IMG/VR virus record: IMGVR_UViG_3300042509_002208
Coordinates: 1-64,000 of that record
Length of the DNA: 64,000 nt
Strand: one strand, 5' to 3'
Source: a virus
Position 1 is the stretch's first letter. Every line of letters begins with the position of its first letter. This document shows, one piece after another, positions 20,091-60,073 of the stretch. Made by a program: the position numbers and the translations under genes. The notes below the pieces were generated by a model. It made no database searches and was not told the DNA's origin. It was given only the letters and a program-made list of their open reading frames with translations.

Positions 20091-20148
20091 AGGCGTGATG
20101 CCTGCTCCCAATGTCCGACGACAATCAGCAAGCACCTGAGACGGGTGC
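20091..20148 (+). promoter_or_regulatory. two GWGAY-pentaloop hairpins flanking the scaffold start codon
   Basis: AGGC-GTGAT-GCCT (20091-20103) and GCACCT-GAGAC-GGGTGC (20132-20148). Confidence 0.6.
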
Positions 20149-20848
20149 CATTCAAGGCAACGAAAATACTTTTAGCGGAAACGAAGACAACAAAAGCTAT
20201 AGCGAAGAAGAGGTTCAAAACCTGCTGAAAGCGCTAAAAGCTGAGCGTGAATCGCGTAAGATTTACGAAAAAGAAGTCAAGGAAAAGGCGGCCCAGCTAG
20301 AAAAGTTCGCCCAGATCAACCCTGACGAATATCGAAAGCTTCAAGAAGAAGCTGCTATTGCTGCACGAGAGAAGGCGGCAGCGGATGAACGCACCTCTTT
20401 ACTTGAAGAGAAGTACGGCGCTCAGGCCGCTGAGGCAGTCAAGAAAGCTGATCTTGCACAGCAAGAATTGCTTGAATTCCGCAAGCGGTACGCTCTCGAA
20501 AAGGTGTTCTTTGCTGCTGGCGGTCGTACTGATTCCGCTGATGGGATTTCATTCTTTGATATGATCTTCAATCAGATCGGAACTCAGTTCAGGCTTGAAA
20601 GCAATGGTAACGTAACCGTTGTTGACGCCAGTGGTGATCCTGTGTTGGATTCTGATTCCGGGAAAAGGATCAATCCTGAGGATTACTTGTCCGGCCTGAA
20701 GAATCATCCAATTTATGGAACCTTCTTCAAGGGCAACAAAGGCTCTGGCGCTGGCATTGGTTATGGCGGCACTGACGCCAATGGTGTTACTGGTGAAGAT
20801 CTTGCCGGCCTAAGTCGAGACGAAATTTTCCTTCGGGCGTTTGGTTGA
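20111..20848 (+). CDS. capsid scaffolding protein
   Basis: Coiled coil (LKALKAERE), C-terminal FFKGNKGSGAG, immediately upstream of the major capsid gene. Confidence 0.8.
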   Translation: MSDDNQQAPETGAIQGNENTFSGNEDNKSYSEEEVQNLLKALKAERESRKIYEKEVKEKAAQLEKFAQINPDEYRKLQEEAAIAAREKAAADERTSLLEEKYGAQAAEAVKKADLAQQELLEFRKRYALEKVFFAAGGRTDSADGISFFDMIFNQIGTQFRLESNGNVTVVDASGDPVLDSDSGKRINPEDYLSGLKNHPIYGTFFKGNKGSGAGIGYGGTDANGVTGEDLAGLSRDEIFLRAFG

Positions 20849-20855
20849 GCAGACG

Positions 20856-20880
20856 AAAACCGGCTTCGGCCGGTTTTTTT
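20856..20880 (+). terminator. intrinsic terminator
   Basis: AAAACCGGC-TTCG-GCCGGTTTTTTT. Confidence 0.9.
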
Positions 20881-20895
20881 GTGATCAATTATCTT

Positions 20896-20938
20896 TATTG
20901 CGATTCTCAATAACTTAATATTATTGAGAATCGCAATA
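20896..20938. repeat. perfect 18-bp inverted repeat
   Basis: TATTGCGATTCTCAATAA-CTTAATA-TTATTGAGAATCGCAATA. Confidence 0.9.
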
Positions 20939-20940
20939 TT

Positions 20941-20949
20941 GGTATTCTA
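20941..20949 (+). promoter_or_regulatory. GGNANNCTA motif (capsid promoter)
   Basis: GGTATTCTA followed by a ~120-nt structured leader. Confidence 0.65.
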
Positions 20950-20958
20950 AGGTGAAGT

Positions 20959-21025
20959 ACCCAGCCCTGAACTGGTTGTGATGACCTATCGGGGAGGGTC
21001 TAGCGCAATCGGAACGTGATGTTCT
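20959..21025 (+). promoter_or_regulatory. structured capsid 5' leader with two GTGAT-pentaloop hairpins
   Basis: ACCC..CCCTGA..GGTT-GTGAT-GACC..TCGGGG.GGGT and GGAAC-GTGAT-GTTCT. Confidence 0.65.
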
Positions 21026-21073
21026 AAAGGCGATTTACCTTTCCTCAAATAGTTATCATCAACTAGGAGAAAC

Positions 21074-21976
21074 ATGGCTCTTACTCTTGCAGAGGCTAAA
21101 AAGCACGCCTCTAACCCCCAAGAACTGGCGATCGTAACCGAACTCGCCGCCGGTCCTCTGCTTCAGAATCTGCCTTTCCGCGAAGTGCAAGGCAACGGTC
21201 TGTTCTGGAAGCGTGAGGAGTCCCTCGGCGACGTGGGCTTCCGTGCCTTCAACGATGGCTATGCCGAAAGCTATGCCACCGTCAAGCAGCAAAGCGAAGC
21301 GCTGAAGTTGTTCGGTGGTGACATCAAGGTTGACCGTGCCATCGTCGACCTGGAAGGCCCCGAAGCTCGCGCTTACCAGATCCAAGCCAAGACCCGCGCA
21401 ATGCGTCTGGCTTTCGAGGCTCTGTTCATCAATGGCGACTCCAACAGCACTGGCGCTGAGTTCGACGGTCTGGCAACCCGCCTGCCCGCTGGCGACTACG
21501 CTACCAACTCCCAGGTGATCCGCAACGCTTCCAGCGCTGCTGCTCTGGATCTGGGCAAACTGGACGAAGTGATTGACGCCGTGGACGCCCAGGGTGGCAC
21601 CAAGTACATCGTGTGCTCGAAGTCCGCTCGCCGCGCTCTGACCAAGGCCGCTCGTAACAGCAGCCAGATCGACATCATGCGTGATGAATTCGGCTATCAG
21701 CAGACCGTGTATGGTGGCCTGCCCGTGCTGGAAATTGACCGCGACCACCAGAACGTGGCAATCCTGGACAGCAACCCTGCTGATCAGTCCCTGTATGTCG
21801 TGTCCTTCGGCAACGATCTGCTGACCGGCCTGCAGAACGGTGGCCCTCAGGTGCGTGATCTGGGTGAAGCAACCGACGCCCCCGTCCTGGTGACCCGCGT
21901 TGAGTGGTATTGCGGCCTGGCTCTGATCAACGGCCGTGCTGCTGCTCGTCTGACCAACGTGAATGCAACCGCCTGA
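21074..21976 (+). CDS. major capsid protein (HK97 fold)
   Basis: 300 aa; GGDIKVDR, FINGD...EFDGL, VTRVEWYCGLA..GRAAARL; AGGAG SD; strong C-ending codon bias. Confidence 0.92.
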   Translation: MALTLAEAKKHASNPQELAIVTELAAGPLLQNLPFREVQGNGLFWKREESLGDVGFRAFNDGYAESYATVKQQSEALKLFGGDIKVDRAIVDLEGPEARAYQIQAKTRAMRLAFEALFINGDSNSTGAEFDGLATRLPAGDYATNSQVIRNASSAAALDLGKLDEVIDAVDAQGGTKYIVCSKSARRALTKAARNSSQIDIMRDEFGYQQTVYGGLPVLEIDRDHQNVAILDSNPADQSLYVVSFGNDLLTGLQNGGPQVRDLGEATDAPVLVTRVEWYCGLALINGRAAARLTNVNATA

Positions 21977-21997
21977 ACCTAGGCGCTAGCTAAGATT

Positions 21998-22024
21998 AAG
22001 GGGTCCTAAAAAGGGCCCCTTTTT
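21998..22024 (+). terminator. intrinsic terminator
   Basis: AAGGGGTCCT-AAAA-AGGGCCCCTTTTT. Confidence 0.85.
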
Positions 22025-22029
22025 CGTAT

Positions 22030-22038
22030 GGAAAACTA
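22030..22038 (+). promoter_or_regulatory. GGNANNCTA motif
   Basis: GGAAAACTA right after the capsid terminator. Confidence 0.65.
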
Positions 22039-22051
22039 GTCAGACTAAGGA

Positions 22052-23257
22052 TTGTCTGTGATTTTTTCGTCGTCCGATATTGAACGCTTAATCGGCGACG
22101 ATCCGATTATCAAGGCAATTTGCGATATCGAAATAGTCGACGCAAAGCCTGCCCTGAAGGCCGGTAGTGGTGTTGTTATTTATATTAAACGATATCCTGA
22201 GCTGTCCGAATTTGAAGCAAGGTGGGATATCTGGATTATTGACTATGACAACGAACCAGTTGATGTTGTTATCCGTCAACTGAGAAAATTACTGCCTCGA
22301 TTTACACTTATTGAAGAAGGCGTAATCATAAAAGCCAGCACAACAGAACTTAGATCTGAGCGAACCGAAACTGAGATAAAGATCGAGCCAGTTGCAGTTA
22401 CAGAAGATCCTTATGAAGAGAAGTTCCAGGATCTCCTTCAATCCATAGAAGACAGGATGCTGCTCGTTGGTCCTGGCAGATCAGGACGTGACGGCAGAGA
22501 TGGTAAAGATGGCATTAATGGTAAAGATGGCATAGACGGCAAAGATTTAGAAGTTACTGAAGTTGAACTTGGCGATCTCAACGATGTCTTTATTTCTGAC
22601 GCAAATCGTGGCCAGTTCCTCATGTTTGATGGAGCTGGTTGGATTCCACGCTTTGTTCCTCAGGTATTCTCAGGTGGCGGTGGAGGTTCCAGTGAAGGCG
22701 GTGGAGGAGACGGCACAATGCCGGAACCACCAGATGATGGCAGATTCTATCTTCGACAAGTCAACAATGGCGCAGGCCAGTGGGTTGATTTACTGACTGC
22801 ACTGAATGCATTGTATCTTGATGGTGGTGATTTTGACGGAAGAAGAGTTAAGACTTCTACTGGTAATTACGTTGTTACTGGATATAGTTCATCTCGTTAT
22901 ATCATCAAGACGCTTCCTGCGGATAGAGGAACGTTTATTGCATCGGGCGAAAATGGTTCGTTCTTGTTTGATCGGATACTTAAAGCCGATAGCGTTGACT
23001 TAATCGTTGCCGGTTCACCTGCAACAATATCAGCTTCTCGTATTGTAACGGCTGATGCAGCCAGCTTTACTGTAACAGGTCAATCAGGAGATGATATTAT
23101 TGGTTATCGTATTCTTGGAGCAGTTGGCAATATTGACCTGACTGGCTCAGATGGTCAGATTCGTTACAACGAACCCGATGTTCAGTTTTATGGAGATTGG
23201 GCTGCTCAAAACTATGGTTACCTAAGTGAAGTCTACCCTGACGGATGGGCTGGGTAG
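22052..23257 (+). CDS. fibre/appendage protein with collagen-like repeats
   Basis: GRSGRDGRDGKDGINGKDGIDGKD; LGDLNDV; internal LDGGDF. Confidence 0.7.
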   Translation: MSVIFSSSDIERLIGDDPIIKAICDIEIVDAKPALKAGSGVVIYIKRYPELSEFEARWDIWIIDYDNEPVDVVIRQLRKLLPRFTLIEEGVIIKASTTELRSERTETEIKIEPVAVTEDPYEEKFQDLLQSIEDRMLLVGPGRSGRDGRDGKDGINGKDGIDGKDLEVTEVELGDLNDVFISDANRGQFLMFDGAGWIPRFVPQVFSGGGGGSSEGGGGDGTMPEPPDDGRFYLRQVNNGAGQWVDLLTALNALYLDGGDFDGRRVKTSTGNYVVTGYSSSRYIIKTLPADRGTFIASGENGSFLFDRILKADSVDLIVAGSPATISASRIVTADAASFTVTGQSGDDIIGYRILGAVGNIDLTGSDGQIRYNEPDVQFYGDWAAQNYGYLSEVYPDGWAG

Positions 23258-23265
23258 GTAACCTA
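23257..23265 (+). promoter_or_regulatory. GGNANNCTA motif
   Basis: GGTAACCTA 19 nt before ATG 23285. Confidence 0.65.
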
Positions 23266-23284
23266 GTTGGAATAACTGAGGCGC

Positions 23285-23638
23285 ATGACAGCTCCAAATT
23301 TGTTGTCGCCAACAACAGTAACTGGTAAGACAGCAATTGCTGAGCTGACCACTTCCTTGGTTGCGATCATCGATAATCCATCGGCTAGCGGCAAGGTTTT
23401 TAAGATTAATACAATTAGGGCAGCTAATATCACGGGCAGTGCTGTTACTATCAGCGTTTGCCACCATAGAGGTCAGCATAATTATCTGCTGAAGGATGGA
23501 GCCCTTGATGGGGCAAAAACAATAATTGTGACCGACAAGAACGAATATGTTTATCTTGAGGAGGGCGATCAGTTAATGGCCTCTTCGTCTTCTGGTTCCA
23601 GTGTTCATTTAACCATCAACTACGAGGAGATTAACTGA
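23285..23638 (+). CDS. small virion structural protein
   Basis: GKVFKINTI.AAN...YLEEGD.L...INYEEI pattern typical of phage fibre-associated proteins. Confidence 0.6.
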   Translation: MTAPNLLSPTTVTGKTAIAELTTSLVAIIDNPSASGKVFKINTIRAANITGSAVTISVCHHRGQHNYLLKDGALDGAKTIIVTDKNEYVYLEEGDQLMASSSSGSSVHLTINYEEIN

Positions 23639-24558
23639 TGACTTGGTCTATTTCCCACACGATTACTTACAACACCAATGCAGATAATCACACTGCACTA
23701 ACTTATTTGTTTGACACTTATTTACCAAGCAAGGGTTGGACGACTGCCGCTCATCCAACAAACCCAGCCAGCTTTAGAAGAAAAGCCAAGTTCACTTGTC
23801 TTAATGTATTAACAAATACCAACTATTCCATGTATCATTGGGTGGACTGGTCGAGCACGTCCCCCACCAGCTTGTATTGGTACGAAGATGCAACGTATAC
23901 AACAACTCCTGGCGATTTGTGCAATGACAGCACTAACAGTCAATCGTCCCAATATCCAATGACACTTGCTGGCGAGAACTGGAAGTTCTGCACTAGCACA
24001 GAGAATGCAAATACGGCATTAGTGCTCAAGGGTGGAAAGGTTGCTTTTTACTGGCCTGGAATTACGGAAGGTTTATTTTGGCCCGACCCGGCATGGGCTG
24101 CAGGCTCCACCGACAATAAGGGCACCTGGATTTGTCCAGTGATGGGCTGGTATTACAATAGTTTTGGTGTGGCCAACTCTCCCGTTACCACTAATACAGG
24201 AACTATATATTACATGGTGCCATCAGTGGGAATGCACCCCAGTGCCAGTGCGTCTGGCCATAGACTTGGTGGCAATTATATTGGGACCAATTTTTCTTGG
24301 ATGTATAGCCAAAATAGCACCAGTAGTTTTTATCCTGATTCCAGTAGTCATATTGGTTTCACGAATGGTGGACATACTGATGTAGGCGTTTGGCAGCCCG
24401 CCTCAATTTACAACAGTAGCGATTGCCGCCAACCGTTTGCATATAGCACAAACGGGGTTACATTGCAGATCGGGTCTAATTACTGGTATAAATCATTTAC
24501 TGATTTAGGCAGGCAAGATGTAATCTTTAATTTTGGCACAGTTGATCCTCTGGCGTAA
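23638..24558 (+). CDS. virion-region protein (S/T/W/Y-rich)
   Basis: Translationally coupled ORF in the fibre cluster. Confidence 0.55.
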   Translation: MTWSISHTITYNTNADNHTALTYLFDTYLPSKGWTTAAHPTNPASFRRKAKFTCLNVLTNTNYSMYHWVDWSSTSPTSLYWYEDATYTTTPGDLCNDSTNSQSSQYPMTLAGENWKFCTSTENANTALVLKGGKVAFYWPGITEGLFWPDPAWAAGSTDNKGTWICPVMGWYYNSFGVANSPVTTNTGTIYYMVPSVGMHPSASASGHRLGGNYIGTNFSWMYSQNSTSSFYPDSSSHIGFTNGGHTDVGVWQPASIYNSSDCRQPFAYSTNGVTLQIGSNYWYKSFTDLGRQDVIFNFGTVDPLA

Positions 24559-24782: not shown

Positions 24783-24790
24783 TTTACCTA

Positions 24791-24799: not shown

Positions 24800-24832
24800 G
24801 TTCAGTACTGACTCTGCCGGACTGGAGCCGAT

Positions 24833-28085: not shown

Positions 28086-28092
28086 AATCCAA

Positions 28093-29722: not shown

Positions 29723-29776
29723 GTGGGCCCCGTACATACGGGGCCTTTCCTTGCTATATAGCAAACAAGGAGCCAA

Positions 29777-46626: not shown

Positions 46627-46660
46627 CTCTGTTAGATTGATTTTGCTAATTCCTTTGACG

Positions 46661-47473
46661 ATGGAACTCAACCAGGACAGCCTGACCCACTGGATGAACA
46701 GAGCCGGGTCTAAGCCCCTGTTGGATCAGGTTGAAATTGATAATATCGCCAGGATTATCCAGTCATCCGAGCCTGGCTCTAAGAAATATAAAAAATATGT
46801 CAACAAGATTGTCGAGCACAACCTTCGCCTTGTCGTGAAGTTTGTCCATGCGTTTATGACGCATAAGACGATGAACAATTGGGGATCGCCAGATACCCTT
46901 GACTATCTTCAAGTTGGTTCACTTGGCTTGTATCGGGCAGCAGAAAAGTACGACCCAGATAGAGGATATAAGTTTTCTACTTACGCAACACACTGGATTC
47001 GTTCATTTGTCGGCAGGTATAACCTGAAAACAATGAGCACTTTTACGATACCAGAGCACGCCTCTCGTAATGCTCATTATTTTGAGGCTCACGGGACTCC
47101 AAAGAGACGCAAAAGTGGCGTCATGCCAACCGATGGCGAAACAGTCGAAATGGTCAAGCTATTGCGTAATGCGCAACGGCCTATGTCGCTGGATGTAACC
47201 ATTGATGCCTGTGGCGTTACATTGCTTGACACCATAGATAGGCAATACGAGGCGCCGGATGCTTTTGTTGAAGGGTGCTTCGATACAGAGACTGAAGACC
47301 TCTTCGTTAAAGCCGGGCTCAGCGGAAAACAGATCTTCATCCTTCGAGGACTCTTCGTTGATAACGCCAAAGCAGGTGACATCCAAAAGGATCTATGCAT
47401 CTCCCAAGGGCAGTATCTGAAACTAAAGAAGCAGGCTTTGGACTCGCTAAAGTCTGTATTAGAACCGGTATAA
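46661..47473 (+). CDS. RNA polymerase sigma70-family factor (RpoD/group 2-like)
   Basis: EHNLRLVV, LQVGSLGLYRAAEKYDPDRGYKFSTYATHWIR, PMSLD. Confidence 0.9.
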   Translation: MELNQDSLTHWMNRAGSKPLLDQVEIDNIARIIQSSEPGSKKYKKYVNKIVEHNLRLVVKFVHAFMTHKTMNNWGSPDTLDYLQVGSLGLYRAAEKYDPDRGYKFSTYATHWIRSFVGRYNLKTMSTFTIPEHASRNAHYFEAHGTPKRRKSGVMPTDGETVEMVKLLRNAQRPMSLDVTIDACGVTLLDTIDRQYEAPDAFVEGCFDTETEDLFVKAGLSGKQIFILRGLFVDNAKAGDIQKDLCISQGQYLKLKKQALDSLKSVLEPV

Positions 47474-51147: not shown

Positions 51148-51169
51148 GTTGGAACAATAGGTAACGCAT

Positions 51170-51805
51170 ATGGCGAGAAGCCCCGTGTCAGAATGGCGTG
51201 AAGCCAAGCCGCCTAAAGGTGAGCCAGGTCCAATTTACGGTTTCAGAAGAGGCTACAGGGTCAGAGATGCTGGTCGCCATGAAACAGCGGATCAATACTC
51301 CGCGTTTCAAAAGTTTCTTCTGTTACAAGGGAACAGAACCTTCACTGCCTTAGAGCAGGCAACTGGCTATTCGACGCCAACACTTTCTTCTTGGGCAGAA
51401 AATTATAACTGGCAAAAACGCGCTGCAGCTTATGATAAAAACCAGATGGCTATCGTCTGGAAAGAAGCGCAAAGGATGCAGCGCAATAGCCATCGCGACG
51501 CCATTGTAGAATTCAGGGAATCTTCAGAGCGTCAAGCCAAGATGATGGCTCGCGTCTCTGAAGATCTTTTGCGTATTCTTGGCAAAAGAATTGAAAGAGC
51601 TGACCAGGAAGGGGAAGATGTCCCCATGAACCTTGTTTCTGGTCTACTTAGGGCTGCGGCCAACATCAACGAGCAGTCAAGGCAGTCGTGGGCCACATCT
51701 CTTGGCGTTAACGAGATGTTGGATATGATTGATACTGAAGTAACCAAGGTAAACGTTGAGGATGTTACTGAAGTTGATGCTTATGACATCCCCTTAGACG
51801 AATGA
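51170..51805 (+). CDS. terminase small subunit-like protein
   Basis: HTH then W...YNW.KRA.AYD coiled coil; upstream of TerL; motif variant GGAACAATA at 51151. Confidence 0.65.
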   Translation: MARSPVSEWREAKPPKGEPGPIYGFRRGYRVRDAGRHETADQYSAFQKFLLLQGNRTFTALEQATGYSTPTLSSWAENYNWQKRAAAYDKNQMAIVWKEAQRMQRNSHRDAIVEFRESSERQAKMMARVSEDLLRILGKRIERADQEGEDVPMNLVSGLLRAAANINEQSRQSWATSLGVNEMLDMIDTEVTKVNVEDVTEVDAYDIPLDE

Positions 51806-51975
51806 CGTATCCTGATTTCCCAATGACCGTCACCCAAGAAGAAGACGGCAGTTTTACTATTGAATGGGATCAAAACCATCCCGTTACATCTTACTTCAAT
51901 GATTTCACCGAAGAAGATTTCATTGAAATGATTATGGCTCGTTGCAAATTAGTATTGGGTGAAGAGATAGAGTAA
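51802..51975 (+). CDS. 57-aa acidic protein (not in ORF track)
   Basis: MTYPDFPMTVTQEEDGSFTIEWDQNHP...GEEIE*, coupled at both ends. Confidence 0.7.
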   Translation: MTYPDFPMTVTQEEDGSFTIEWDQNHPVTSYFNDFTEEDFIEMIMARCKLVLGEEIE

Positions 51976-53501
51976 TGGCCATTAAACTCGGCAAGGATTT
52001 CCTGGAGAGGTCAGCTTCCGACCGGGAGATGGTCCGCAAGCTGCGGGAAATTAAGACTGAAAGGAAAGAAGGTGCCAAGAAGGTAATCCTTTATAAGTTC
52101 ATTAAGGAAGTTTGTGCCAGTTATAAGTTCTACAAGGTTCACGCAGAGCTGACTAGACAGCTTCAAAGGGTTATTGACGGAGACTGCAAACGACTAATTA
52201 TCCAGATCCCTCCCAGAACTGGAAAGTCGATGCTGTCATCAAAGTTGCTGCCGGCAGCTTATCTACTTGCACATCCTGATCGTTACGTCGGCATCAGTTC
52301 CTACAGTGCGGAATTGGCAGAAGGTTTTTCACGCGCAGCCAGGGACTACTACAGGGAAGCTGGCGGGCTATTCGACCCTCACAAGCAGGCTGTGAACGAC
52401 TGGGGTACCCAAGGTGGCGGTGGCCTGTGGGCTGCTGGCGTCGGCGGCGCCATCACCGGTCGTTCTGGTCACTTGTTGATCATCGACGACCCGGTGAAAA
52501 ACAGAGAAGATGCAGACAGCCCCAGAGTCATGGAGAAGCTGTGGGATTGGTACACATCTACTTTATATACACGACTTGAACCGGTGGTTGGCTCTATTGT
52601 CGTCATTCAGACTAGATGGAGCGAGAACGATCTAATTGGCAAGCTTCTTGAGTCTGAGATGAATGTCTCAGAGAAAGGCCGAGAGAATTGGACAATCCTG
52701 GATCTTCCGGCAATCTCGGAAGATATGGGTTCACGTCCGCCTTTGCCATCTCATTGTGATGTTGTAGAAGATTGGAGAGAGAAATCCGGGGAAGCGCTTT
52801 GTCCGCAACGCTATGGGATCGATGAATACGAACGCATCAGAGAAGCAATTGGTACTCGCGACTTTGCTGCCTTGTATCAACAAAGGCCAGCTCCTGTCGG
52901 CGGTAACATGTTCGATCCTAGCTGGTGGCAATATTATGAACATGACACGGTAATGCCTGAATTCCAGCGCATCATGCTCAGTGTCGACTGTACTTTCACC
53001 AGCAACAACAATAGCGACTATGTTGTTGGCAGCGTCATCGGACAAGCCGGAAACAGGTTCTATGTGATTGACATGGTCAGAGAAAGACTCGATATCGTCG
53101 GAACAATCAACATGATTTCAAGGATGTATAACAAGCACTCCTTGAGCGGTACGATTATCGAACTTGCAGCTTCCGGCTATGCCGCTTACCAAATGCTGCA
53201 ACAGCGGGTTCCAGGACTGATTGGCTTCAAGCCGGAGAAATCAAAATCAGCTAGAGCTGCCGGTATCGTGCCAATTGTTGAGGCTGGAAATGTCTTCCTG
53301 CCAGCCAGTGCCACATGGCTCGATTCGTATATAAATGAATTCAGCCTGTTTCCTGCTGCAAAGAATGATGACATCGTCGACTCTATTACGATGGCGATTA
53401 ATTATATGGCGCAAAGATCTGCGCCTGTCATGACCGAAGTGACATGGGGGCGCACTGCTTTTGTTCCTGGGGCGACCGCTAGAATAGAAATAAACACATA
53501 A
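51975..53501 (+). CDS. terL: terminase large subunit
   Basis: PPRTGKS, LLIIDDP, QTRW, LYQQRP, SVDCTF, DDIVDS. Confidence 0.93.
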   Translation: MAIKLGKDFLERSASDREMVRKLREIKTERKEGAKKVILYKFIKEVCASYKFYKVHAELTRQLQRVIDGDCKRLIIQIPPRTGKSMLSSKLLPAAYLLAHPDRYVGISSYSAELAEGFSRAARDYYREAGGLFDPHKQAVNDWGTQGGGGLWAAGVGGAITGRSGHLLIIDDPVKNREDADSPRVMEKLWDWYTSTLYTRLEPVVGSIVVIQTRWSENDLIGKLLESEMNVSEKGRENWTILDLPAISEDMGSRPPLPSHCDVVEDWREKSGEALCPQRYGIDEYERIREAIGTRDFAALYQQRPAPVGGNMFDPSWWQYYEHDTVMPEFQRIMLSVDCTFTSNNNSDYVVGSVIGQAGNRFYVIDMVRERLDIVGTINMISRMYNKHSLSGTIIELAASGYAAYQMLQQRVPGLIGFKPEKSKSARAAGIVPIVEAGNVFLPASATWLDSYINEFSLFPAAKNDDIVDSITMAINYMAQRSAPVMTEVTWGRTAFVPGATARIEINT

Positions 53502-54130
53502 TGGCCCGTAAATCTCTGGATTTTCAGCTCACGCCTGAGCAACAGAAGATGGCCGCTGATAATATTAATCTAGCAAGAAGAGAGGCTTGGCGGATCCAGA
53601 GAACTACAGGCATAGATTATTCAACACTTGAAGGCGCGGCGTTTCTTGGTCTGTGCAAGGCTTGCCATCGATATGATCCGGATTCCGGATACAAGTTTTC
53701 TAGTCTGGCTACGCCGACAATTAGAGGTGAATTGCTGCACTGGGTCAGAGACAGGACTTACGCAATGCGGTTATCTCACAAGATGAGAGAAAACTGGATT
53801 AAAGGTAGGAAGATGCTGTATTCCGGATCTAGCGATATCGAGGTTGCAGACGAGCTTGGCCTGAGCTTGCAGGAATGGCAAGAGACAAGATCCGCTTGCT
53901 CCGGCCCTCCATTAGAATTAAAGGATCAGTCTATGCCGACAGATCCACTTGAAGCTGAAGAGATCAATTTCAGGGAGATATATCAGGAAAAGGCTACTGA
54001 TATCATAGAAAGCTTAAGCGAAGAAGATAAGGAATTCCTGGATGACTATTTCAATAGCCAGGGAGTCAAGCCTCCTGTTAGAAAATTTCAAGTGCTCTGG
54101 GAAGAGCTGTCTAAACGTAAACTAACGTGA
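53501..54130 (+). CDS. sigma factor, SigF/SigB/SigG-like
   Basis: GLCKACHRYDPDSGYKFSSLATPTIRGELLHWVRD; EVADELGLSLQEW. Confidence 0.88.
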   Translation: MARKSLDFQLTPEQQKMAADNINLARREAWRIQRTTGIDYSTLEGAAFLGLCKACHRYDPDSGYKFSSLATPTIRGELLHWVRDRTYAMRLSHKMRENWIKGRKMLYSGSSDIEVADELGLSLQEWQETRSACSGPPLELKDQSMPTDPLEAEEINFREIYQEKATDIIESLSEEDKEFLDDYFNSQGVKPPVRKFQVLWEELSKRKLT

Positions 54131-54306: not shown

Positions 54307-55873
54307 CACAACGCTGACAGCCATACGCGAAATACCTTTCACTACGATTCTGCAAAAAGAGAATATATCATTTAAAAAGATCGGCAAAGAAGCAGTTACA
54401 TTATGTCCATGGCACAATGACAGTAATCCGTCGATGACGGTTAGCGATGAAAAGAACTTGTGTTATTGCTTTGTCTGTCAATATGGCACTGATACTATTG
54501 GGTTCCTGCAGCAAAAGCTAGGGCTTGACTTCAGTGATGCAGTTCATCGCATAGCTAATTGCGGCGATCTTGTCGTAGAATATGACAACATCGACCCCAA
54601 GCTTGCCGTCCAGGAAGCCAAGAGAAGAGCGGAGCTGTTTGACAAAACCAACAGACAACAAGAGAATTTCCGTAAAAATATAACCGATGCGAGAGCTATT
54701 CGTATCCATCAAATCTTAGAAGAGAGAGATATAGCTCCCTCGACAAGTCGTCACTTTGGGCTTGGGTATGCAATCGATGGCTTTTTTGCTGATCGCATTA
54801 CTGTTCCAATTCATGACCATCAAGGTTACTTAGTTGGATTCACCGGACGGGCAACAAGAGATGAAGCAAAGCCAAAGTATAAGAACTCTGAAAACGGTGA
54901 GATATTTGACAAATCAAGAATTGTTTATAATGAATACAGAGCGAGCGAAGCTATCAGGGAAGCTGACAGCGTTATCTTTGTTGAAGGGCATTTTGACGTT
55001 ATTAGCTTGTGGCAGCACGGGATCCGTAATGTTGTAGCAATGCAGGGGACCGCCCCACCCAGTGAAGCTATCCTGAAAAGACTGTCTAGAAAGACGAAAC
55101 GATTCATCTTATGCTACGACAGCGATGAAGGTGGAACTAAAGCTATCGAGAACTTCATCAAGGTAGCCGGACCCGCCGCTTGCAGAGGTGAGATAACAAT
55201 ATCTGTGGCTGAGTTGCCTGATGGAATGGATCCCGATGAGTGCATCAGAGATGAATCTATCGATTTCTTTTCTATTATCGAGAATTCGGTTTCATGGCTT
55301 GACTGGCAGTTGGATGTATGGCTTGCCAACGTAGATAGGACAGATACGGCAAAGTTCATTCAGATAGAAACTAGTGTCAGGCAGTTGGTTGAATCTATCA
55401 ATTCGCCTAGTTTGCGTCAATACTATATTGACAAGGCCTCCAAAATTTTGGCTGCAAATCAAAAGTCTGCCGCAAAAATTGCTAAGGAGTGGTCCGAGAA
55501 TATTAAAGTAGTCAGATTAAAAAGAACATGGACAAAGCCAACACCTGCGGAAACAAGGATTGGGGCTGAAAAGAAGTTGCTGCGGATGTACATCCACATA
55601 CCAGAACTGCGGGAAGAGTGCCGCAAGTTGATGGATCGACTGCAATCCCCTAGTCATAGGTGGCTGTGGCAGAGGATCAATGAATTGGAGGAGCACGACA
55701 CCAGACCGCTAGAGCCAGAAGCTGTAATGGCGGTCTTGGCGGTATGCGAGCCCTATTACACCAGGCAGTTGCGACCTATAGCGGTTCCTACAATAAAAGT
55801 GCTGAATAACTCAGGCATCCTTAAACACATTCAAAAAACACTGAGTGAGGAGTTGACGATCAATGGCATCTAG
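54293..55873 (+). CDS. dnaG: DNA primase
   Basis: CHC2 finger CPWH...CFVC, KYKNS, TOPRIM VEGHFDV, DSDEGG, DPDE. Confidence 0.93.
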   Translation: MIISDTTLTAIREIPFTTILQKENISFKKIGKEAVTLCPWHNDSNPSMTVSDEKNLCYCFVCQYGTDTIGFLQQKLGLDFSDAVHRIANCGDLVVEYDNIDPKLAVQEAKRRAELFDKTNRQQENFRKNITDARAIRIHQILEERDIAPSTSRHFGLGYAIDGFFADRITVPIHDHQGYLVGFTGRATRDEAKPKYKNSENGEIFDKSRIVYNEYRASEAIREADSVIFVEGHFDVISLWQHGIRNVVAMQGTAPPSEAILKRLSRKTKRFILCYDSDEGGTKAIENFIKVAGPAACRGEITISVAELPDGMDPDECIRDESIDFFSIIENSVSWLDWQLDVWLANVDRTDTAKFIQIETSVRQLVESINSPSLRQYYIDKASKILAANQKSAAKIAKEWSENIKVVRLKRTWTKPTPAETRIGAEKKLLRMYIHIPELREECRKLMDRLQSPSHRWLWQRINELEEHDTRPLEPEAVMAVLAVCEPYYTRQLRPIAVPTIKVLNNSGILKHIQKTLSEELTINGI

Positions 55874-56102
55874 GAACAACAATCGCCCCGTCGAGTATGT
55901 TATGTACACCATGAACGGGTGCCCTTTTTGCAATCAGGCAAAGGCGCTGTTTGAATATTATGGCGTGAATTATGAGACTAAATACGAGAAAGCACCTGAT
56001 TGGGATACTTTTCCAGGTATCTATAAGGTCACAGAAGAGGGGCCAAAGCTGATCGGTGGCTTTACCGAATTGGCAAAGTATTCATATGACAATGGCTTAT
56101 AG
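55863..56102 (+). CDS. glutaredoxin
   Basis: CPFC, TFP, IGGFTEL. Confidence 0.9.
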   Translation: MASRNNNRPVEYVMYTMNGCPFCNQAKALFEYYGVNYETKYEKAPDWDTFPGIYKVTEEGPKLIGGFTELAKYSYDNGL

Positions 56103-56105
56103 GTA

Positions 56106-56336
56106 ATGGACGCCGGTCTCCTGGCAGTACTAGTCGCAATTCTCGCATTCTACCTAGTCCTGCCAGTTGACTTTTACCTGTTGACAGAGACTTGCTTGGT
56201 TACGCTGAGACTGGTGGTACTTAACTACTACCTAATGTTTCAGGCGTGGCGGTTGCATCGTCTAATCTGCAAGGATCTGGCTAGAATTGGAATGGCTAAG
56301 CCGGCATTTAAGTTCACCCCGATCTGGGAAAGGTAA
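56106..56336 (+). CDS. small membrane protein
   Basis: Hydrophobic N-terminus. Confidence 0.65.
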   Translation: MDAGLLAVLVAILAFYLVLPVDFYLLTETCLVTLRLVVLNYYLMFQAWRLHRLICKDLARIGMAKPAFKFTPIWER

Positions 56337-56467
56337 TGGCAACCAAGAAGACCCTCACTGGAAACAACCGCCCAATGGAGCGGATCGGCAAAATTACCCA
56401 CCAAGGAAGCGGCTTAAGATCCCGCCCAAAGCGTGGTAAGAAACGCTACAGGGGCCAGGGGCGCTGA
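56336..56467 (+). CDS. 43-aa basic protein ending YRGQGR (not in ORF track)
   Basis: MATKKTLTGNNRPMERIGKITHQGSGLRSRPKRGKKRYRGQGR*, coupled at both ends. Confidence 0.75.
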   Translation: MATKKTLTGNNRPMERIGKITHQGSGLRSRPKRGKKRYRGQGR

Positions 56468-56748
56468 TGTCACAAGGATCCGTCTCTAATTATCAAATTC
56501 AAGAAGCAGTTGATTCAATCTATGCAATGATCAAAGAGGGGAAGCTTGCTCAAGCTTTATCTCTTTTGTATTTCATGCATAAATTGAATTTATTAGAATG
56601 GGTCCTAGTTAAAAGAGAATTGATTTCTTCTGCTAATACTGTAAAAAAACTGCAGTTAATAGCAACGCTACTAGAAGCATCAAAGAAATCAACACTAGCA
56701 GAATCAAGTGTTTTGGTCCCAGGTTTAATCTGCGATCCAAGGGACTAA
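56467..56748 (+). CDS. hypothetical protein
   Basis: TGATG coupling. Confidence 0.6.
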   Translation: MSQGSVSNYQIQEAVDSIYAMIKEGKLAQALSLLYFMHKLNLLEWVLVKRELISSANTVKKLQLIATLLEASKKSTLAESSVLVPGLICDPRD

Positions 56749-56804
56749 AATTAGCCTAACAACGCTGTTAAAAGCGGCAGTCTATCTTCGCATCTCCAAA
56801 AACA

Positions 56805-59159
56805 ATGGCAGAATTTAGTTCTTTTGCCCCGTCTGCTCCTGCTGTTTTTTACCGCTCTTATTCTCGCAGAAAAGAGGACGGAACTCGGGAAAATTTCGCT
56901 GAAGCGATTCATCGGACTATTACAGATATTGCTGATATTGGTCATTTCACCAAAGAGCAGCTCGACATGGCCCTTGAGATGGGCCTCAAGCAGCATTGCT
57001 TCCCCAGTGGTCGATCTCTTTGGGTCGCGGGCACAGAGTGGGGCAAGAAGCCGGAAAATTTCCCCGGTTACTACAACTGCTGCTCGATGCACGTCGATGA
57101 CGTTTCCATCTTTGGCTTGCTCATGGAGCTTGCAATGATGGGTACTGGCACGGGCGCTGTGCTGGAACTTGATGTGATTCGCAGGCTTCCTGAAGTCAAG
57201 CGTGGCCTGCATTGCGAAATTGTCAAGCAAAACGAAGGAGCGAAAGGTGGTCGTGCTCAGACTGAAATTAAACTGATTGGGATTAAAGACGAGAATCCAA
57301 CCATTCTGGTCTCCGTTGGCGATTCCCGTCAGGGCTGGGCTTCTGCCTACCAGGGCTTGATCGAGCTTGCGATGGGCACTCCTGCAGAAGGAGAAGAGGA
57401 AGAGACGACTTGCATTGACGCTAATATCGTCCTGGACTTGAGCCAGGTACGTCAGGCCGGTGAGCCCCTCAAAGGCTTCGGTGGAACCGCGAACCCTGTT
57501 CGCTTACAAGACACCATGGAGCGAGCCATGGCGATCCTTACAAAAGCAGTAGGACGCAAGCTCACTTCGATCGAATGTTGTCTGTTGATCGACGAAGCGG
57601 CTAGCGCAGTTGTGGCCGGTAATATCCGTCGCAGCGCCGGGATGCGTCAATTTACCGCTGAAGACAAGGCGGCAGCAGTGGCTAAAGACGGTCTTTATAA
57701 GCAAGACGAAGAGGGCAACTGGAGCGTTGATCCAGAGAAAGAAGCTCTGCGGATGGCTAACCATACGCGCTGCTTCCACCAGAAGCCCATGCTGCAAGAC
57801 ATCAAGGACGCTGTTACGAAGCAGTTCTGGTCTGGCGAAGGCGCTATCCAGTATGTGCCTGAGATGGTTGCCAGATCCAATGCGGACCTGCTGGATTCGC
57901 CGGAGAAAAAGGCTAATTTCCTTGATATTTATGTGAAGTTCAGCAAGAATCACGCTGCTGAATACTTGCGGACGCTTGCTACGGAAGCGGGCGAACCGAC
58001 TGATGATCGGATTATTCAGCATCGGATTGAGCGTTATGGTTTGAATCCCTGCGGTGAAATCAGCCTCCGGGATAATTTGTGCAATCTCTCCGAGATTCAT
58101 TTGAATACAATTGATCCGAAGGATCTTGAACTTCAACGCAAGGCTTTCTATGTAGGCGGTTTACAGGTTGCGGCTCTGCTGAACCATAAATTTGTCCCTG
58201 AAAGGCTTGCCTATAGCCGTGAGAATGATCCCATCGTCGGCGTATCATTCACTGGCCTGTTTGACTTCTTCGTTCATGCATTTGGGGCTGAATGGCTTGG
58301 GTGGATGATGAAAGGTCGTCCAACCGGTCAGGCATTCAAAAAGTTCACCCAGAAGGAAGAAGCCTTCCTTAAACTCTGGAAAGAAGCCGCCGAGCAAGGC
58401 GTTAAGGACTACTGCCAGCAACAAGGGCTCCGACTCCCGAACCGCTACACCACTGTGCAACCCGCCGGCTCCAAGAGCTTGTTGACTGGTGCTTCCCCTG
58501 GCTGGCATCCTCCTAAGGCACAACGCTTCATTCGCCGGATCACCTTTGGTGTCAACGATCCCCTTGTTAGCGCATTGCGTGATTATGGATACAACGTCAT
58601 CCCAGCCCAAAGCGCACGAGACGAAGAAGGGAATCTCCTGGACGACATCTCTGATCCCAGGGTTCAAGAGGTTTTGGTTGAGATTCCAACTGAAGTTTCT
58701 TGGGCGAATTTACCTGGCTGTGATGAGCATGATCTGAGCCAGCTTCCTGTTAGTGCTCAATGGGGCCTGTATATGCAAGTCCAAAATCACTACACAACCC
58801 ACAACACCTCTGCCACTCTTGAGTTCCGGGAAGCTGAAATCCCTGTCCTTAGTCAGCTAATCTATGACAATATCAGGCAGGATGGTGGATACATCTCTGC
58901 TGCACTCTTGGCTCGCTTCGATGCGAACGAGACATTCCCTCGTTTGCCATTTGAACCAATCAGCAAAGAAACGTTCCAACGAAGAATGGCAGCAGTCGCG
59001 GCTGTTCGGAGTGGATTAGCTGAACATGTGACGATGCTTGACCTGCTTCAGCAGTACGATCGCCCTGATTATGAGCTGAAAGGGGCCGCTGGTTGCGATT
59101 CCGCGAAATGCTTAAGTGAATCTGACAAAGACAAGGATCAGATTGGGCAACTGATCTAA
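56805..59159 (+). CDS. nrdJ: class II (adenosylcobalamin-dependent) ribonucleotide reductase
   Basis: FPSGRSLW, YNCC, VVAGNIRRSA, NPCGEI, TVQPAGSKSLL, C-terminal GCDSAKC; no class I small subunit nearby. Confidence 0.92.
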   Translation: MAEFSSFAPSAPAVFYRSYSRRKEDGTRENFAEAIHRTITDIADIGHFTKEQLDMALEMGLKQHCFPSGRSLWVAGTEWGKKPENFPGYYNCCSMHVDDVSIFGLLMELAMMGTGTGAVLELDVIRRLPEVKRGLHCEIVKQNEGAKGGRAQTEIKLIGIKDENPTILVSVGDSRQGWASAYQGLIELAMGTPAEGEEEETTCIDANIVLDLSQVRQAGEPLKGFGGTANPVRLQDTMERAMAILTKAVGRKLTSIECCLLIDEAASAVVAGNIRRSAGMRQFTAEDKAAAVAKDGLYKQDEEGNWSVDPEKEALRMANHTRCFHQKPMLQDIKDAVTKQFWSGEGAIQYVPEMVARSNADLLDSPEKKANFLDIYVKFSKNHAAEYLRTLATEAGEPTDDRIIQHRIERYGLNPCGEISLRDNLCNLSEIHLNTIDPKDLELQRKAFYVGGLQVAALLNHKFVPERLAYSRENDPIVGVSFTGLFDFFVHAFGAEWLGWMMKGRPTGQAFKKFTQKEEAFLKLWKEAAEQGVKDYCQQQGLRLPNRYTTVQPAGSKSLLTGASPGWHPPKAQRFIRRITFGVNDPLVSALRDYGYNVIPAQSARDEEGNLLDDISDPRVQEVLVEIPTEVSWANLPGCDEHDLSQLPVSAQWGLYMQVQNHYTTHNTSATLEFREAEIPVLSQLIYDNIRQDGGYISAALLARFDANETFPRLPFEPISKETFQRRMAAVAAVRSGLAEHVTMLDLLQQYDRPDYELKGAAGCDSAKCLSESDKDKDQIGQLI

Positions 59160-59203
59160 GGCGTTTATGGATCGTTAGACTGGACAAGATCCAGGCTACC
59201 CCT

Positions 59204-59452
59204 GTGCCAAGTCGCAGAGATCCACCTAAGTGCCATAAGCATTACAGCCCGGAAGTCCAACAGGCTGTAATGCATTTTCAAGATATGTGGGCTGTTTATA
59301 CGAATTCTACTTTCTATGAACTGAAAGAGAATGACTACCGGGTAGTCGCCGTACAAACAGCCTTCAATCAACTTGTTAGAGCGCGTAAACGCGAAACAGG
59401 TACTGGTTTTTACTTGACAGCACAGGAGTACAAAGATGTCAACAATCTGTGA
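59204..59452 (+). CDS. hypothetical protein
   Basis: 82-aa ORF filling the gap. Confidence 0.55.
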   Translation: MPSRRDPPKCHKHYSPEVQQAVMHFQDMWAVYTNSTFYELKENDYRVVAVQTAFNQLVRARKRETGTGFYLTAQEYKDVNNL

Positions 59453-60053
59453 TTATCAGATTGCTCAATATGCAAAGAAAGGGCTCATTGAACCCTTCAA
59501 TGAGAAACAGGTTAATCCTGCATCTTATGATGTCAGACTGAATGGCTGCTTGCTGCTTGAGCACGAGCCGGACAAAGATTACCCAGAAGAATCGCTAAAG
59601 TGCGATTGTAGATGGGTCAAGCATATCTGTGATGAAGGTGGTTACCTTCTGAAGCCTGGTGAGTTTGTACTGGGCTGCACGGAAGAGTTCTTCAGTGTAC
59701 CACCAGAACTCGAAGCTGTGTTTCAGCTCAAATCTTCCCGTGGAAGAGAGGGATTTGAACATGTGCTGAGTGGTTACATTGACCCAGGATTCTCTGGTAG
59801 ATTGACATTGGAATTAGTAAATGTCAACAGATACCATGATTTACTATTGCTTCCTGGAATGCTAATTGGGCAAGTCCGTTTTATGAAACTGGACGAACGT
59901 CCCAGGAGAGACTACTCACAAACTGGTCATTATCAAAATGACACAAATGTGCAGTATTCAAAAGTAGATGTCTTTGGTAATCAGGCTCAAGACCAAGAGC
60001 GAGGCTCGTTTGGTGTGTCGATTGCCGAGGCTGGTGTATTCCCGGAATCCTAG
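59436..60053 (+). CDS. dcd: dCTP deaminase
   Basis: NPASYDVRL, KSSRGREG, IDPGFSGRLTLEL, IGQ. Confidence 0.9.
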   Translation: MSTICDYQIAQYAKKGLIEPFNEKQVNPASYDVRLNGCLLLEHEPDKDYPEESLKCDCRWVKHICDEGGYLLKPGEFVLGCTEEFFSVPPELEAVFQLKSSRGREGFEHVLSGYIDPGFSGRLTLELVNVNRYHDLLLLPGMLIGQVRFMKLDERPRRDYSQTGHYQNDTNVQYSKVDVFGNQAQDQERGSFGVSIAEAGVFPES

Positions 60054-60073
60054 ATGAGTCAAGGCGAGATGCC
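60044..60073 (+). promoter_or_regulatory. GGNANNCTA motif plus GAGAT-pentaloop hairpin upstream of portal
   Basis: GGAATCCTA (60044-60052) and GGC-GAGAT-GCC (60063-60073). Confidence 0.6.

Follow-up and report, generated by a model that had tools for sequence, protein, structure and literature searches.

Hairpins with a G-N-G-A-Y loop at the 5′ ends of head-assembly messages in a cyanophage and its relatives: a candidate shared RNA operator

The boxB hairpins of the lambda and P22 nut sites are read by the arginine-rich motif of the N protein. In the RNA phages MS2, PP7 and Qbeta, the coat protein reads an operator hairpin and thereby represses translation, while CsrA/RsmA recognizes GGA in hairpin loops, with the dimeric reader bridging sites. 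To our knowledge, the P22 scaffold is the sole well-known precedent for head-assembly feedback on expression; its gene is reportedly autoregulated post-transcriptionally (Casjens and Adams 1985; Wyckoff and Casjens 1985), and we know of no RNA operator defined for it.

The window considered here (the whole stretch of DNA analysed, 64,000 nucleotides, positions 1 to 64,000 of IMG/VR record IMGVR_UViG_3300042509_002208) comes from a cyanophage in which, as in well over a hundred relatives, hairpins of one family stand at the 5′ ends of the small-terminase (TerS), portal, scaffold and major capsid messages. Stems of 3–9 bp, usually closed by C-G, carry the loop G-N-G-A-Y, which can be described as a GNRA-type sequence plus a pyrimidine or, equally, as a three-base loop closed by a G-Y pair. 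Like boxB, the element is a short, 5′-proximal hairpin of phage transcripts with a five-base, GNRA-like fixed loop and a covarying stem, found in several units per phage. It differs in its loop (G-N-G-A-Y, not GNRNA), in the lack of a boxA and of any N-like protein that we could find, in its two to three copies per leader overlapping start sites and coding sequence, and in its association with monocistronic late head genes having their own promoters instead of early operons. The RNA phage operators are likewise small hairpins with specific loop bases at a translation start, read there by a virion structural protein, but they obey other loop and bulge rules, and one operator for one gene in an RNA genome contrasts with several copies over four genes of a dsDNA phage. 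CsrA/RsmA targets and the TwoAYGGAY motif share the arrangement of at least two same-loop hairpins per leader, one near the ribosome-binding site, whereas the loop here lacks GGA; the ORFs that were checked gave no csrA-like gene. The likeness to P22 lies in post-transcriptional control of the scaffold message, in step with assembly in P22 and proposed here; the difference is that here the element is defined and the regulation proposed, with a reach that includes portal, capsid and terminase messages. The eukaryotic IRE/IRP and histone stem-loop/SLBP systems resemble it in logic only (fixed loop, free stem, location near an mRNA end, one post-transcriptional regulon), by analogy and not homology, their sequences, organisms and machinery being unrelated. 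Rfam 15 gave no match, and the motif is uncatalogued there.

The scaffold transcription unit comprises the following features.

20071–20079, + strand: late-promoter motif GGCATACTA, of the GGNANNCTA type, inside an 11-nt conserved block (20069–20079)
20090–20104, + strand: hairpin S1, TAGGC-GTGAT-GCCTG (helix 1 of alignment A5)
20111–20848, + strand: head scaffolding protein gene (245 aa, pI 4.7; phrog_206, E 1.5e-27)
20132–20148, + strand: hairpin S2, GCACCT-GAGAC-GGGTGC, within scaffold codons 8–13
20856–20880, + strand: intrinsic terminator 3′ of the scaffold gene, CCGGC-TTCG-GCCGG then a T run, as read from the sequence

No stretch of the five-phage alignment A1 is better conserved than this block, and the promoter core G-G-n-A...T is invariant in 55 scaffold leaders, with the remainder nearly so. 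Hairpin model R1 scores S1 highest of all sites in the window, at 18.5 bits. About 5 nt separate S1 from the inferred 5′ end, and 6 nt separate it from the scaffold ATG (20111) downstream; this second spacer measures 3–10 nt in 59 distinct leaders. The AUG is flanked by hairpins at −21 to −6 and +21 to +38, with a gap of about 27 nt. Compensatory changes were found in 10 of 11 pairs of the scaffold leaders, aligned by MAFFT without structure fitting, and 90% of pairs are kept versus 36–50% in slid controls. The S1 helix is 95% paired with compensatory changes in 4 of 5 pairs, and the S2 helix (helix 2 of A5) is 86% paired with such changes in all 6 pairs despite its coding stretch. Since the terminator follows the gene, the unit is monocistronic; an equivalent GC hairpin and T run is present in relatives.

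The capsid transcription unit has a longer leader.

20941–20949, + strand: late-promoter motif GGTATTCTA, of the GGNANNCTA type
20959–20999, + strand: domain 1, a long stem (ACCC/GGGU base and inner CCC/GGG pairs) capped by hairpin A
20974–20986, + strand: hairpin A, GGTT-GTGAT-GACC
21011–21025, + strand: hairpin B, GGAAC-GTGAT-GTTCT, 63 nt upstream of the capsid AUG in our measure
21037–21046, + strand: conserved pyrimidine stretch ACCUUUCCUC (conserved columns in alignment A3)
21074–21976, + strand: major capsid protein gene (300 aa; phrog_212, major head protein, E 9.5e-73)
21998–22021: terminator 3′ of the capsid gene

This leader is one larger conserved structure. The promoter columns GG-A---TA vary little or not at all among 59 capsid leaders, and 12 of 16 leader pairs show compensatory changes (again a MAFFT alignment, not structure-fitted), with 89% pairing versus 32–50% in slid controls, a result reached by 0 of 500 shuffles. 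Domain 1, recovered by RNAalifold unguided, keeps 99% of the pairs of its invariant ACCC/GGGU base and has compensatory changes in 3 of 3 inner-helix and 4 of 4 hairpin A pairs, while hairpin B has them in 5 of 5 (A3). The stretch ACCUUUCCUC could pair alternatively with GGGGAGGGU (20991–20999) or with the Shine-Dalgarno sequence AGGAG (21066–21070). The minimum-energy fold of the window's leader joins it to GGGGAGGGU. Over 59 sequences this helix is 83% paired, yet its covariation does not rise above shuffles and the helix is therefore unproven.

These two units bear on whether the hairpins could be boxB/nut-like sites, from which a phage antiterminator would load onto RNA polymerase via nascent hairpins and allow read-through of late-region terminators. 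The promoter-proximal position, GNRA-like pentaloop and stem of about 5 bp do recall lambda and P22 boxB, and intrinsic terminators follow both genes. We nevertheless regard this as very unlikely: scaffold and capsid each form a complete unit of promoter, gene and terminator, the gene after capsid has its own promoter at 22030, copies lie in coding sequence and against the AUG, the fifth loop base departs from the A of GNRNA, and searches gave neither a conserved boxA-like element common to the three leaders nor a convincing arginine-rich protein.

The portal and TerS units lie far from the scaffold and capsid genes.

51151–51159, + strand: promoter-like motif GGAACAATA, a variant of the late promoter, 5′ of the TerS gene
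51172–51182, + strand: hairpin T1, GGC-GAGAA-GCC, beginning at the G of the start codon (ATG at 51170)
51194–51206, + strand: hairpin T2, TGGC-GTGAA-GCCA, in TerS codons 9–13 (14.1 bits)
60044–60052, + strand: late-promoter motif GGAATCCTA, of the GGNANNCTA type, overlapping the dCTP deaminase stop codon
60063–60073, + strand: hairpin P1, GGC-GAGAT-GCC, 35 nt upstream of the portal ATG (60098) in our measure
60085–60095, + strand: hairpin P2, GGC-GCTAT-GCC, with a degenerate loop, ending 2 nt before the portal AUG
60098–61585, + strand: portal protein gene (495 aa; phrog_145, E 8e-89)

Relatives conserve an equivalent promoter motif in their portal leaders, two to four hairpins occur in 49 of 53 portal loci, and the last hairpin ends 1–4 nt upstream of the AUG in relatives. 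In alignment A6 (MAFFT, not structure-fitted), 11 of 12 pairs are compensatory and 81% are paired versus 24–52% when slid. The third loop base, otherwise invariant, is T in P2 of this phage, and the counterpart in its closest relatives (L085, L087) reads GGC-GCGAT-GCC; the portal leader of P-SS2 is without the motif. T1 has counterparts in L145, L155 and L146, GGC-GAGAT-GCC or AGC-GAGAT-GCT, which enclose the ATG, and a GTGAT-loop hairpin also follows the TerS promoter in S-CBS2 (G004) and L151–L153 (G003 contig included). T2, conserved in the closest clade only, shares its stretch with the conserved peptide EWREAK, and protein constraint may account for its conservation. As a promoter, GGAACAATA would give a TerS leader of a few nucleotides only; the same variant, ending in ATA, also drives the scaffold genes of L075–L077. 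P2, both TerS hairpins and the larger capsid-leader structure had escaped the preliminary description. The five hairpins it listed (S1, S2, A, B and P1) are all present at the coordinates it gave and, as it had said, downstream of late-promoter motifs, which we place at 20071, 20941 and 60044; its scaffold, capsid and portal assignments agree with the phrog families given above.

Counted over the window, the hairpins are no more frequent than expected: GWGAY hairpins with stems of 3 bp or more number 12 on the + strand versus about 14 expected, and GNGAN hairpins 45 versus 62 ± 8. The total thus shows no excess, while clustering and promoter association do exceed chance. Four hairpins with stems of at least 4 bp lie inside 1 kb, as in 1 of 400 shuffles, and promoter-plus-hairpin sites number five versus a mean of 0.85, with 0 of 400 shuffles reaching five. 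The chance-level total is what could be said for chance inverted repeats, or for DNA-level operators of a dimeric DNA-binding protein, a reading refuted by the comparative data and left with practically no probability. It is the comparison with relatives that decides the matter. Hairpin positions are kept in about 80 capsid/scaffold loci, and positional conservation with compensatory changes extends to more than 130 loci. When GNGAN loops with stems of at least 4 bp were counted in 50-nt bins over 83 capsid loci, only two pile-ups appeared, 146 matches at −100/−63 relative to the capsid ATG and 117 at the start of the scaffold gene, all on the + strand, with 0–6 matches (mostly 0–3) per bin elsewhere. 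Half-site sequences are not conserved, and stem pairing across the three leaders is 81–90% versus 24–52% in slid controls, with 10–12 compensatory pairs each.

The hairpins are RNA elements rather than DNA sites, as had been proposed from their G-U pairs, since they are confined to the sense strand in relatives and G-U pairs are frequent, A-C pairs almost absent and other mismatches rare in the leader alignments (pair 74/84 of the capsid leader is GC in 27, GU in 20 and other in 1). They are also under selection, because the stems covary and the loop is fixed. Hundreds of copies, including those from lineages with capsids only 41% identical, share the fixed bases G1, G3 and A4. Among 222 distinct copies, position 2 is U in 43%, A in 43%, C in 13% and G in 1%, and position 5 is U in 57% and C in 28%, a pyrimidine in 85%. 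No second loop family was found in capsid, scaffold or portal leaders.

The hairpins are specific to separately transcribed head-assembly genes. The window has about 20 intergenic + strand GGNANNCTA sites; 3 of these roughly 20 strict-motif late promoters carry the hairpin, plus the TerS promoter variant, and the window's tail-gene leaders are without it, as previously stated. Five complete genomes have 40–57 promoter-like sites each, of which three to five have a hairpin 3–32 nt downstream (scaffold 5/5, capsid 5/5, portal 4/5, TerS 3/5), and only scaffold, capsid, portal and some clades' TerS genes are so marked. The hairpins usually lie within or beside the ribosome-binding region. Promoter proximity, not AUG proximity, is the constant over the four genes, which is also compatible with a role in 5′-end stability.

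The hairpins might instead be protein-independent structures that shield abundant late mRNAs from 5′-end-dependent RNases (RNase E or J) and hold the start codon in a single-stranded gap, the loop being a compact GNRA-like cap. However far away the AUG, each set of copies starts 2–10 nt downstream of the inferred transcription start, the scaffold AUG does sit in a gap between two hairpins, and many other late transcripts of the window also begin with a hairpin. Precedent for such a loop exists in C-GCAAY-G, a GNRA-plus-pyrimidine pentaloop family known from ribosome structures (PMC9830547). A stabiliser, however, needs no set loop, whereas G1, G3 and A4 are fixed; those other transcripts have other loops, unrelated ones in tail and lysis transcripts; and second and third copies, 25–45 nt downstream in coding sequence or against the AUG, cannot shield a 5′ end. 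We consider this reading unlikely, if worth keeping in view.

The motif occurs in P-SS2 and relatives and in L187–L189, G006 and G008, whose capsids are 41–43% identical. It is absent from Mwe-JY26, Cp1R7A-A1, RcXuper, L197 and L198 (capsids 38–42% identical), a group that includes a Microcystis cyanophage and in which the upstream scaffold gene is non-homologous or undetected; each of the motif-bearing lineages examined does have a scaffold homologue. Behind this co-distribution stand about four lineages with the motif and five without, and phylogeny confounds it. Across deep divergence, and in phages of GC 0.44, about 0.48 and 0.66, the loop hardly changes; such constancy would not be expected of a rapidly evolving reader encoded by the phage, and a universal host factor would fit as well. 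A conserved ribosome, RNase or host RNA-binding protein could accordingly be the reader, for instance through a Shine-Dalgarno-independent recruitment or standby signal, and the window's scaffold and portal leaders indeed lack a Shine-Dalgarno sequence, while no phage reader was found among the ORFs checked. This too is unlikely, given that phages with similar capsids and another scaffold family lack the motif, that it is limited to head genes in each genome, and that loop positions 2 and 5 vary freely, which also leaves a fixed pairing with the 16S rRNA tail (AUCAC) unsupported.

The most economical reading of elements that are RNA, selected, head-gene specific and mostly at initiation sites is a shared operator, and on balance we lean towards the hairpins being sites for one trans-acting RNA-binding factor that couples translation and/or stability of the separately transcribed head messages. 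Copies of one short cis-acting element, usually two or three at the 5′ extremity of each late head mRNA, would all be read by this single factor. On scaffold, portal and TerS messages its place would be within the region bound by the 30S subunit, where it would prevent or modulate initiation; simple occlusion is inapplicable to capsid because its hairpins lie 63–100 nt from the AUG, and there the factor may act via the larger folded leader. Judged by distribution alone, the scaffolding protein would be the best candidate reader, as the motif tracks a homologous scaffold family, a weak and indirect argument. Both the capsid protein (pI 4.9) and the scaffold are acidic and neither has a recognisable RNA-binding domain, which counts against a direct role; the ORFs checked yielded no RNA-binding domain and no binding protein. 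Of the operator proposed earlier for portal, scaffold and capsid, the RNA nature, selection, head-gene specificity and initiation-site placement of most copies stand; that a protein binds, which protein it is and whether it raises or lowers expression are what we infer, and repression by scaffold or coat to balance stoichiometry is a candidate mechanism. As the same hairpin tags their mRNAs, the scattered head-assembly genes of these phages probably share one post-transcriptional control.

The window covers 64 kb of a 79-kb virus record and belongs to a siphovirus of marine picocyanobacteria, kin to the Synechococcus phages S-CBS2 and S-CRES1-3, with which it shares about 70% DNA identity across the scaffold/capsid region. 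The genes relevant here, assigned by PHROG match apart from the second sigma factor, are as follows:

7054-12195, tape measure
20111-20848, scaffold
21074-21976, major capsid protein
46637-47473, second sigma factor, carrying Sigma70 region 2
51170-51805, small terminase (TerS)
51975-53501, large terminase
53501-54130, sigma factor, SigF-like, directly after the large terminase
60098-61585, portal

The SigF-like gene (53501-54130) has the same synteny as ORF003 of the Prochlorococcus phage P-SS2, and the same sigma pair was described in the P-SS2 genome paper as group 3 and group 2 sigma factors (PMC2784084). One of these two phage sigma factors probably reads the single-element late promoter GGNANNCTA, of which about 20 intergenic motifs lie on the + strand of the window. 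Scaffold and capsid each form a promoter-gene-terminator unit, and the genes after them carry GGNANNCTA motifs of their own. Between the scaffold terminator and the capsid promoter lies an inverted repeat (20896-20938, 43 nt in total) with two perfectly matching 18-bp arms around 7 nt. It is absent from all aligned relatives including the 97%-identical locus L005, and could be either newly inserted or an operator particular to this strain. Elsewhere in the window, a tRNA-Leu (CAA) gene occupies 680-751 on the - strand, and an HNH endonuclease gene (5200-5664, - strand), which is kept in relatives and in P-SS2, runs opposite to the tail-gene block into which it is inserted.

The five hairpins with a GWGAY loop that a preliminary description had reported at the portal, scaffold and capsid starts are all present where it placed them. 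Hairpin counts alone are no support for them: given 262 loop words, about 14 N3+-GWGAY-N3+ hairpins were expected, compared with 12 seen on the + strand and 6 on the - strand, and the GNGAN tally of 45 lies below the 62 +/- 8 of shuffled sequence. Whereas the total is thus at chance, the arrangement goes beyond it. Four copies with stems of at least 4 bp fall within 935 bases, a clustering equalled in one of 400 shuffles, and the sequence GGNANN[C/A]TA followed 3-32 nt on by such a hairpin occurs five times (mean 0.85 in shuffles, with 0/400 reaching five), four of these sites being those of the scaffold, capsid, small-terminase and portal genes. The remaining late-promoter motifs of the window are followed by unrelated sequence or by hairpins with different loops. 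A single-hairpin covariance model (R1) was abandoned as a genome scanner, carrying too little information to tell true from chance copies within one genome; it gave 17 matches in the window at E up to 10, and most true copies were missed when it was used in a filtered genome search.

Several other late transcripts, among them that of the major tail protein, also open with a hairpin directly after GGNANNCTA, with unrelated loops:

6284-6330, loop TTCGATT
29726-29745, a 4-nt loop
38714-38729, loop GTAA

Late mRNAs of this phage may generally carry a 5'-terminal hairpin.

The comparative sample comprised 80 IMG/VR loci around capsid homologues (68-97% protein identity) and four cultured relatives. 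Two G-N-G-A-N hairpins with widely different stems were found at about -100 and -63 from the capsid ATG in 80 of 83 loci. Across all 434 kb, hairpins with stems of at least 4 bp piled up only at the capsid leader (146) and the scaffold start (117), in both cases entirely on the + strand, over a background of 0-6 (mostly 0-3) per 50-nt bin. Two to four copies also lie within the last 130 nt before the portal ATG in 49 of 53 loci, the final copy often ending 1-2 nt from it. Covariation was tested on MAFFT alignments built without structure information, and the stems proved to covary in the capsid, scaffold and portal leaders (10-12 compensatory pairs each).

Table. Covariation in leader alignments: compensatory pairs; cells paired; cells paired when slid; shuffles reaching the observed level
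Capsid leader (A3, 59 sequences): 12/16; 89%; 32-50%; 0/500
Scaffold leader (A5, 55 sequences): 10/11; 90%; 36-50%; 0/500
Portal leader (A6, 34 sequences): 11/12; 81%; 24-52%; 0/500

Unguided folding with RNAalifold recovered the capsid-leader helices. In the per-pair tables of all three alignments, G-U pairs are common and other mismatches rare, which together with the strand bias identifies sense-strand RNA as the folding molecule, in line with the earlier proposal of RNA rather than DNA recognition. The initial observation is confirmed and now extends to small-terminase copies, a second portal copy and a structured capsid leader, as well as to more than 130 relatives over a deep range of lineages.

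Among 222 distinct copies, the loop begins with G, has U (43%), A (43%), C (13%) or G (1%, 2/222) at position 2, continues with G and A, and ends in U (57%), C (28%), A (10%) or G (5%). These copies close the loop with C-G in 56% of cases and with U-A, U-G or A-U in the rest, and neither GNAAN nor any other loop family was found in these leaders. A purely structural role does not explain this fixed loop. The loop fits two descriptions, a GNRA sequence with an added pyrimidine or a triloop closed by a G-Y pair; C-GCAAY-G represents a GNRA-plus-Y pentaloop family known from ribosome structures (PMC9830547).

In the scaffold unit, the promoter is followed after 10-17 nt by hairpin S1, which ends 3-10 nt before the AUG. 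Hairpin S2 begins, in most leaders, 19-25 nt past the AUG; its stem codons vary, and its loop codes for Glu-Thr or Glu-Met. The last portal hairpin similarly ends near its start codon, 1-4 nt before it, and the TerS hairpin T1 overlaps the AUG; the capsid hairpins are distant (-63 and -100). In TerS, the first hairpin keeps a constant distance from the promoter and the start codon shifts: ahead of the hairpin in the window, the ATG falls within it in relatives L145 and L155. In the capsid leader, hairpin A caps an invariant ACCC/GGGU helix and a covarying inner helix, and is followed 3' by a long hairpin B and then by conserved single-stranded stretches. In the region 21037-21070 of this leader, the conserved stretch ACCUUUCC resembles an anti-Shine-Dalgarno sequence and has two possible partners, the 3' strand of the leader's basal helix and the AGGAG that precedes the capsid AUG. 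The alternative helix GGGGAGGGU:ACCUUUCC, a possible switch that would free the Shine-Dalgarno, is 83% paired with covariation not beyond shuffles. The capsid leader could hold a riboswitch-like three-way competition around ACCUUUCC, which covariation does not yet support.

Three other readings of the loop were discarded. Pairing with the 16S rRNA 3' tail (GUGAU with AUCAC) was ruled out because loop positions 2 and 5 vary freely, and a pseudoknot with the conserved AUCACC/UUCACC of the capsid leader was rejected on inspection of A3, since sequences with GAGA loops retain the same downstream stretch. The likeness of GUGAUGA to a box C/D or K-turn element is a chance resemblance that most copies do not fit, its sole trace being an Rfam snoRNA match at E 9.6.

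Promoter-proximal hairpins in five complete genomes of this phage group mark scaffold (5/5), capsid (5/5), portal (4/5) and small terminase (3/5), and almost nothing beyond those four genes. P-SS2, whose capsid protein is 51% identical, and its relatives carry hairpins at scaffold and capsid; the motif was not found in the P-SS2 portal leader. Two further P-SS2 genes are preceded by such hairpins: gp085 (185 aa, annotated 'DNA-directed RNAP') by a promoter-like motif and a TGC-GTGAT-GCA hairpin (L179 22499-22560, corresponding to P-SS2 72499-72560), and gp030, a 1500-aa 'head morphogenesis' gene, by a second hairpin pair at 17544-17584. More distant capsid lineages were sampled from IMG/VR. 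Contigs L187-L189 (capsids 41-43% identical; GC 0.66 and 0.44) have two to four capsid-leader copies and one before scaffold, and the motif is absent from Microcystis phage Mwe-JY26, Mesorhizobium phage Cp1R7A-A1, Rhodobacter phage RcXuper and contigs L197/L198 (capsids 38-42% identical). Each motif-bearing lineage encodes a homologue of the window scaffold, with E-values from 1e-18 to 1e-90. Among the phages that lack the motif, the ORF preceding the capsid gene has no significant similarity to this scaffold (E at best 0.004), and L198 yielded no such ORF. Presence of the motif thus tracks the scaffold protein, in a lineage sample that is small and confounded by phylogeny. A host factor as reader of the hairpins is possible, but it fits poorly with the absence of the motif from sister lineages and with its restriction to head genes.

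The element works like well-known hairpin operators such as boxB/N, the MS2 coat operator and CsrA sites, yet it fails the testable defining features of these families. In boxB/nut sites, a GNRNA pentaloop with a G1-A5 pair and one extruded base sits on a stem of about 5 bp with boxA beside it, and lambdoid N antitermination relies on terminator read-through for distal-gene expression and on an encoded small, arginine-rich N-like protein. The loop here is instead G-N-G-A-N with mostly U/C and only 10% A (of 222) at position 5, departing from GNRNA; apart from the promoter, no block is common to the scaffold, capsid and portal leader alignments; and read-through is not needed, as the next genes have their own promoter motifs. 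A scan for arginine-rich proteins yielded nothing convincing, its windows lying almost only in overlapping, out-of-frame ORFs. A boxB-like antitermination role is unlikely, given monocistronic units, no boxA and a different loop rule. MS2-type operators include or abut the ribosome-binding site or start codon and are bound by a virion structural protein; scaffold, portal and TerS hairpins share this placement and the capsid hairpins do not, and the link between motif and structural protein here is co-distribution with the scaffold family only. CsrA/RsmA sites present a GGA core in a hairpin loop, which is not the case here (position 2 is G in 2/222 copies), and none of the approximately 45 ORFs scanned matched a CsrA-family protein in PHROG or Pfam. 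With IRE/IRP and histone SLBP control the likeness is one of logic. The comparison with Rfam 15 placed the element in none of its families, with 0 matches in the whole window at gathering thresholds and chance-level matches only in 20040-21100 at E up to 10. Literature searches returned no description of the motif, and the P-SS2 genome paper does not mention hairpins (PMC2784084).

Of the readings considered, that of an operator is best supported: a fixed loop on stems that are free to vary, repeated in four functionally linked but separately transcribed messages, is the signature expected of an operator read by one trans-acting factor. As to the preliminary proposal, an RNA element with a shared loop on separate messages is borne out by the alignments, and its reader and the regulation it would exert are inferred. 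In three of the four genes the hairpins lie within or next to the 30S binding region, which points to control of translation initiation, and the constant closeness to the 5' end may make mRNA stability an equal or additional target. Scaffold is the best candidate reader, judging from co-distribution and the P22 precedent, a candidacy tempered by the acidity of the protein (pI 4.7) and by the small, phylogeny-confounded lineage sample. A tentative and rather doubtful extension is an assembly-feedback regulon, in which unassembled scaffold or another head-module protein would bind the G-N-G-A-Y hairpins at the 5' termini of the mRNAs for terminase, portal, scaffold and capsid. The progress of procapsid assembly would thereby govern how much of every head component is translated, in the manner of IRE/IRP or histone SLBP control, and the element would be inherited with the scaffold gene across lineages whose capsids have diverged to about 41% identity.

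Another potential reader, p122 (P0001, 61838-62206), was dropped. This conserved basic protein of 122 aa (pI 9.1), with several invariant Cys and Trp residues, neighbours the portal gene at 52 of 53 loci, 300-800 nt downstream. A search of 50,697 phage records placed it exclusively in phages with the motif, the cultured ones being S-CBS2, S-CRES1-3 and P-SS2, and metagenomes supplied 443 homologues. It was missing from contigs G006-G008, which do carry the motif, belongs to no Pfam or PHROG family and gave an empty protein atlas search, and its mediocre AlphaFold model (pLDDT 69) matched no PDB fold.

In dsDNA phages, portal, scaffold and capsid proteins are made in very different numbers, and how these are set is, to our knowledge, largely unexplained, above all where the genes are scattered and separately transcribed. 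Scaffold autoregulation in P22, in which the amount of free scaffold protein acts on the scaffold mRNA post-transcriptionally, is the only classical case, one whose RNA target, as far as we know, was never defined. The element is sharply defined and supported by covariation, it offers obvious loop bases for mutagenesis and few candidate readers, and its carriers S-CBS2, S-CRES1-3 and P-SS2 can be cultured, all of which makes the question directly testable. For marine cyanophages it is a widespread cis-regulatory RNA that had not been catalogued, and in annotation it can flag where head genes start and where late transcripts have their 5' ends.
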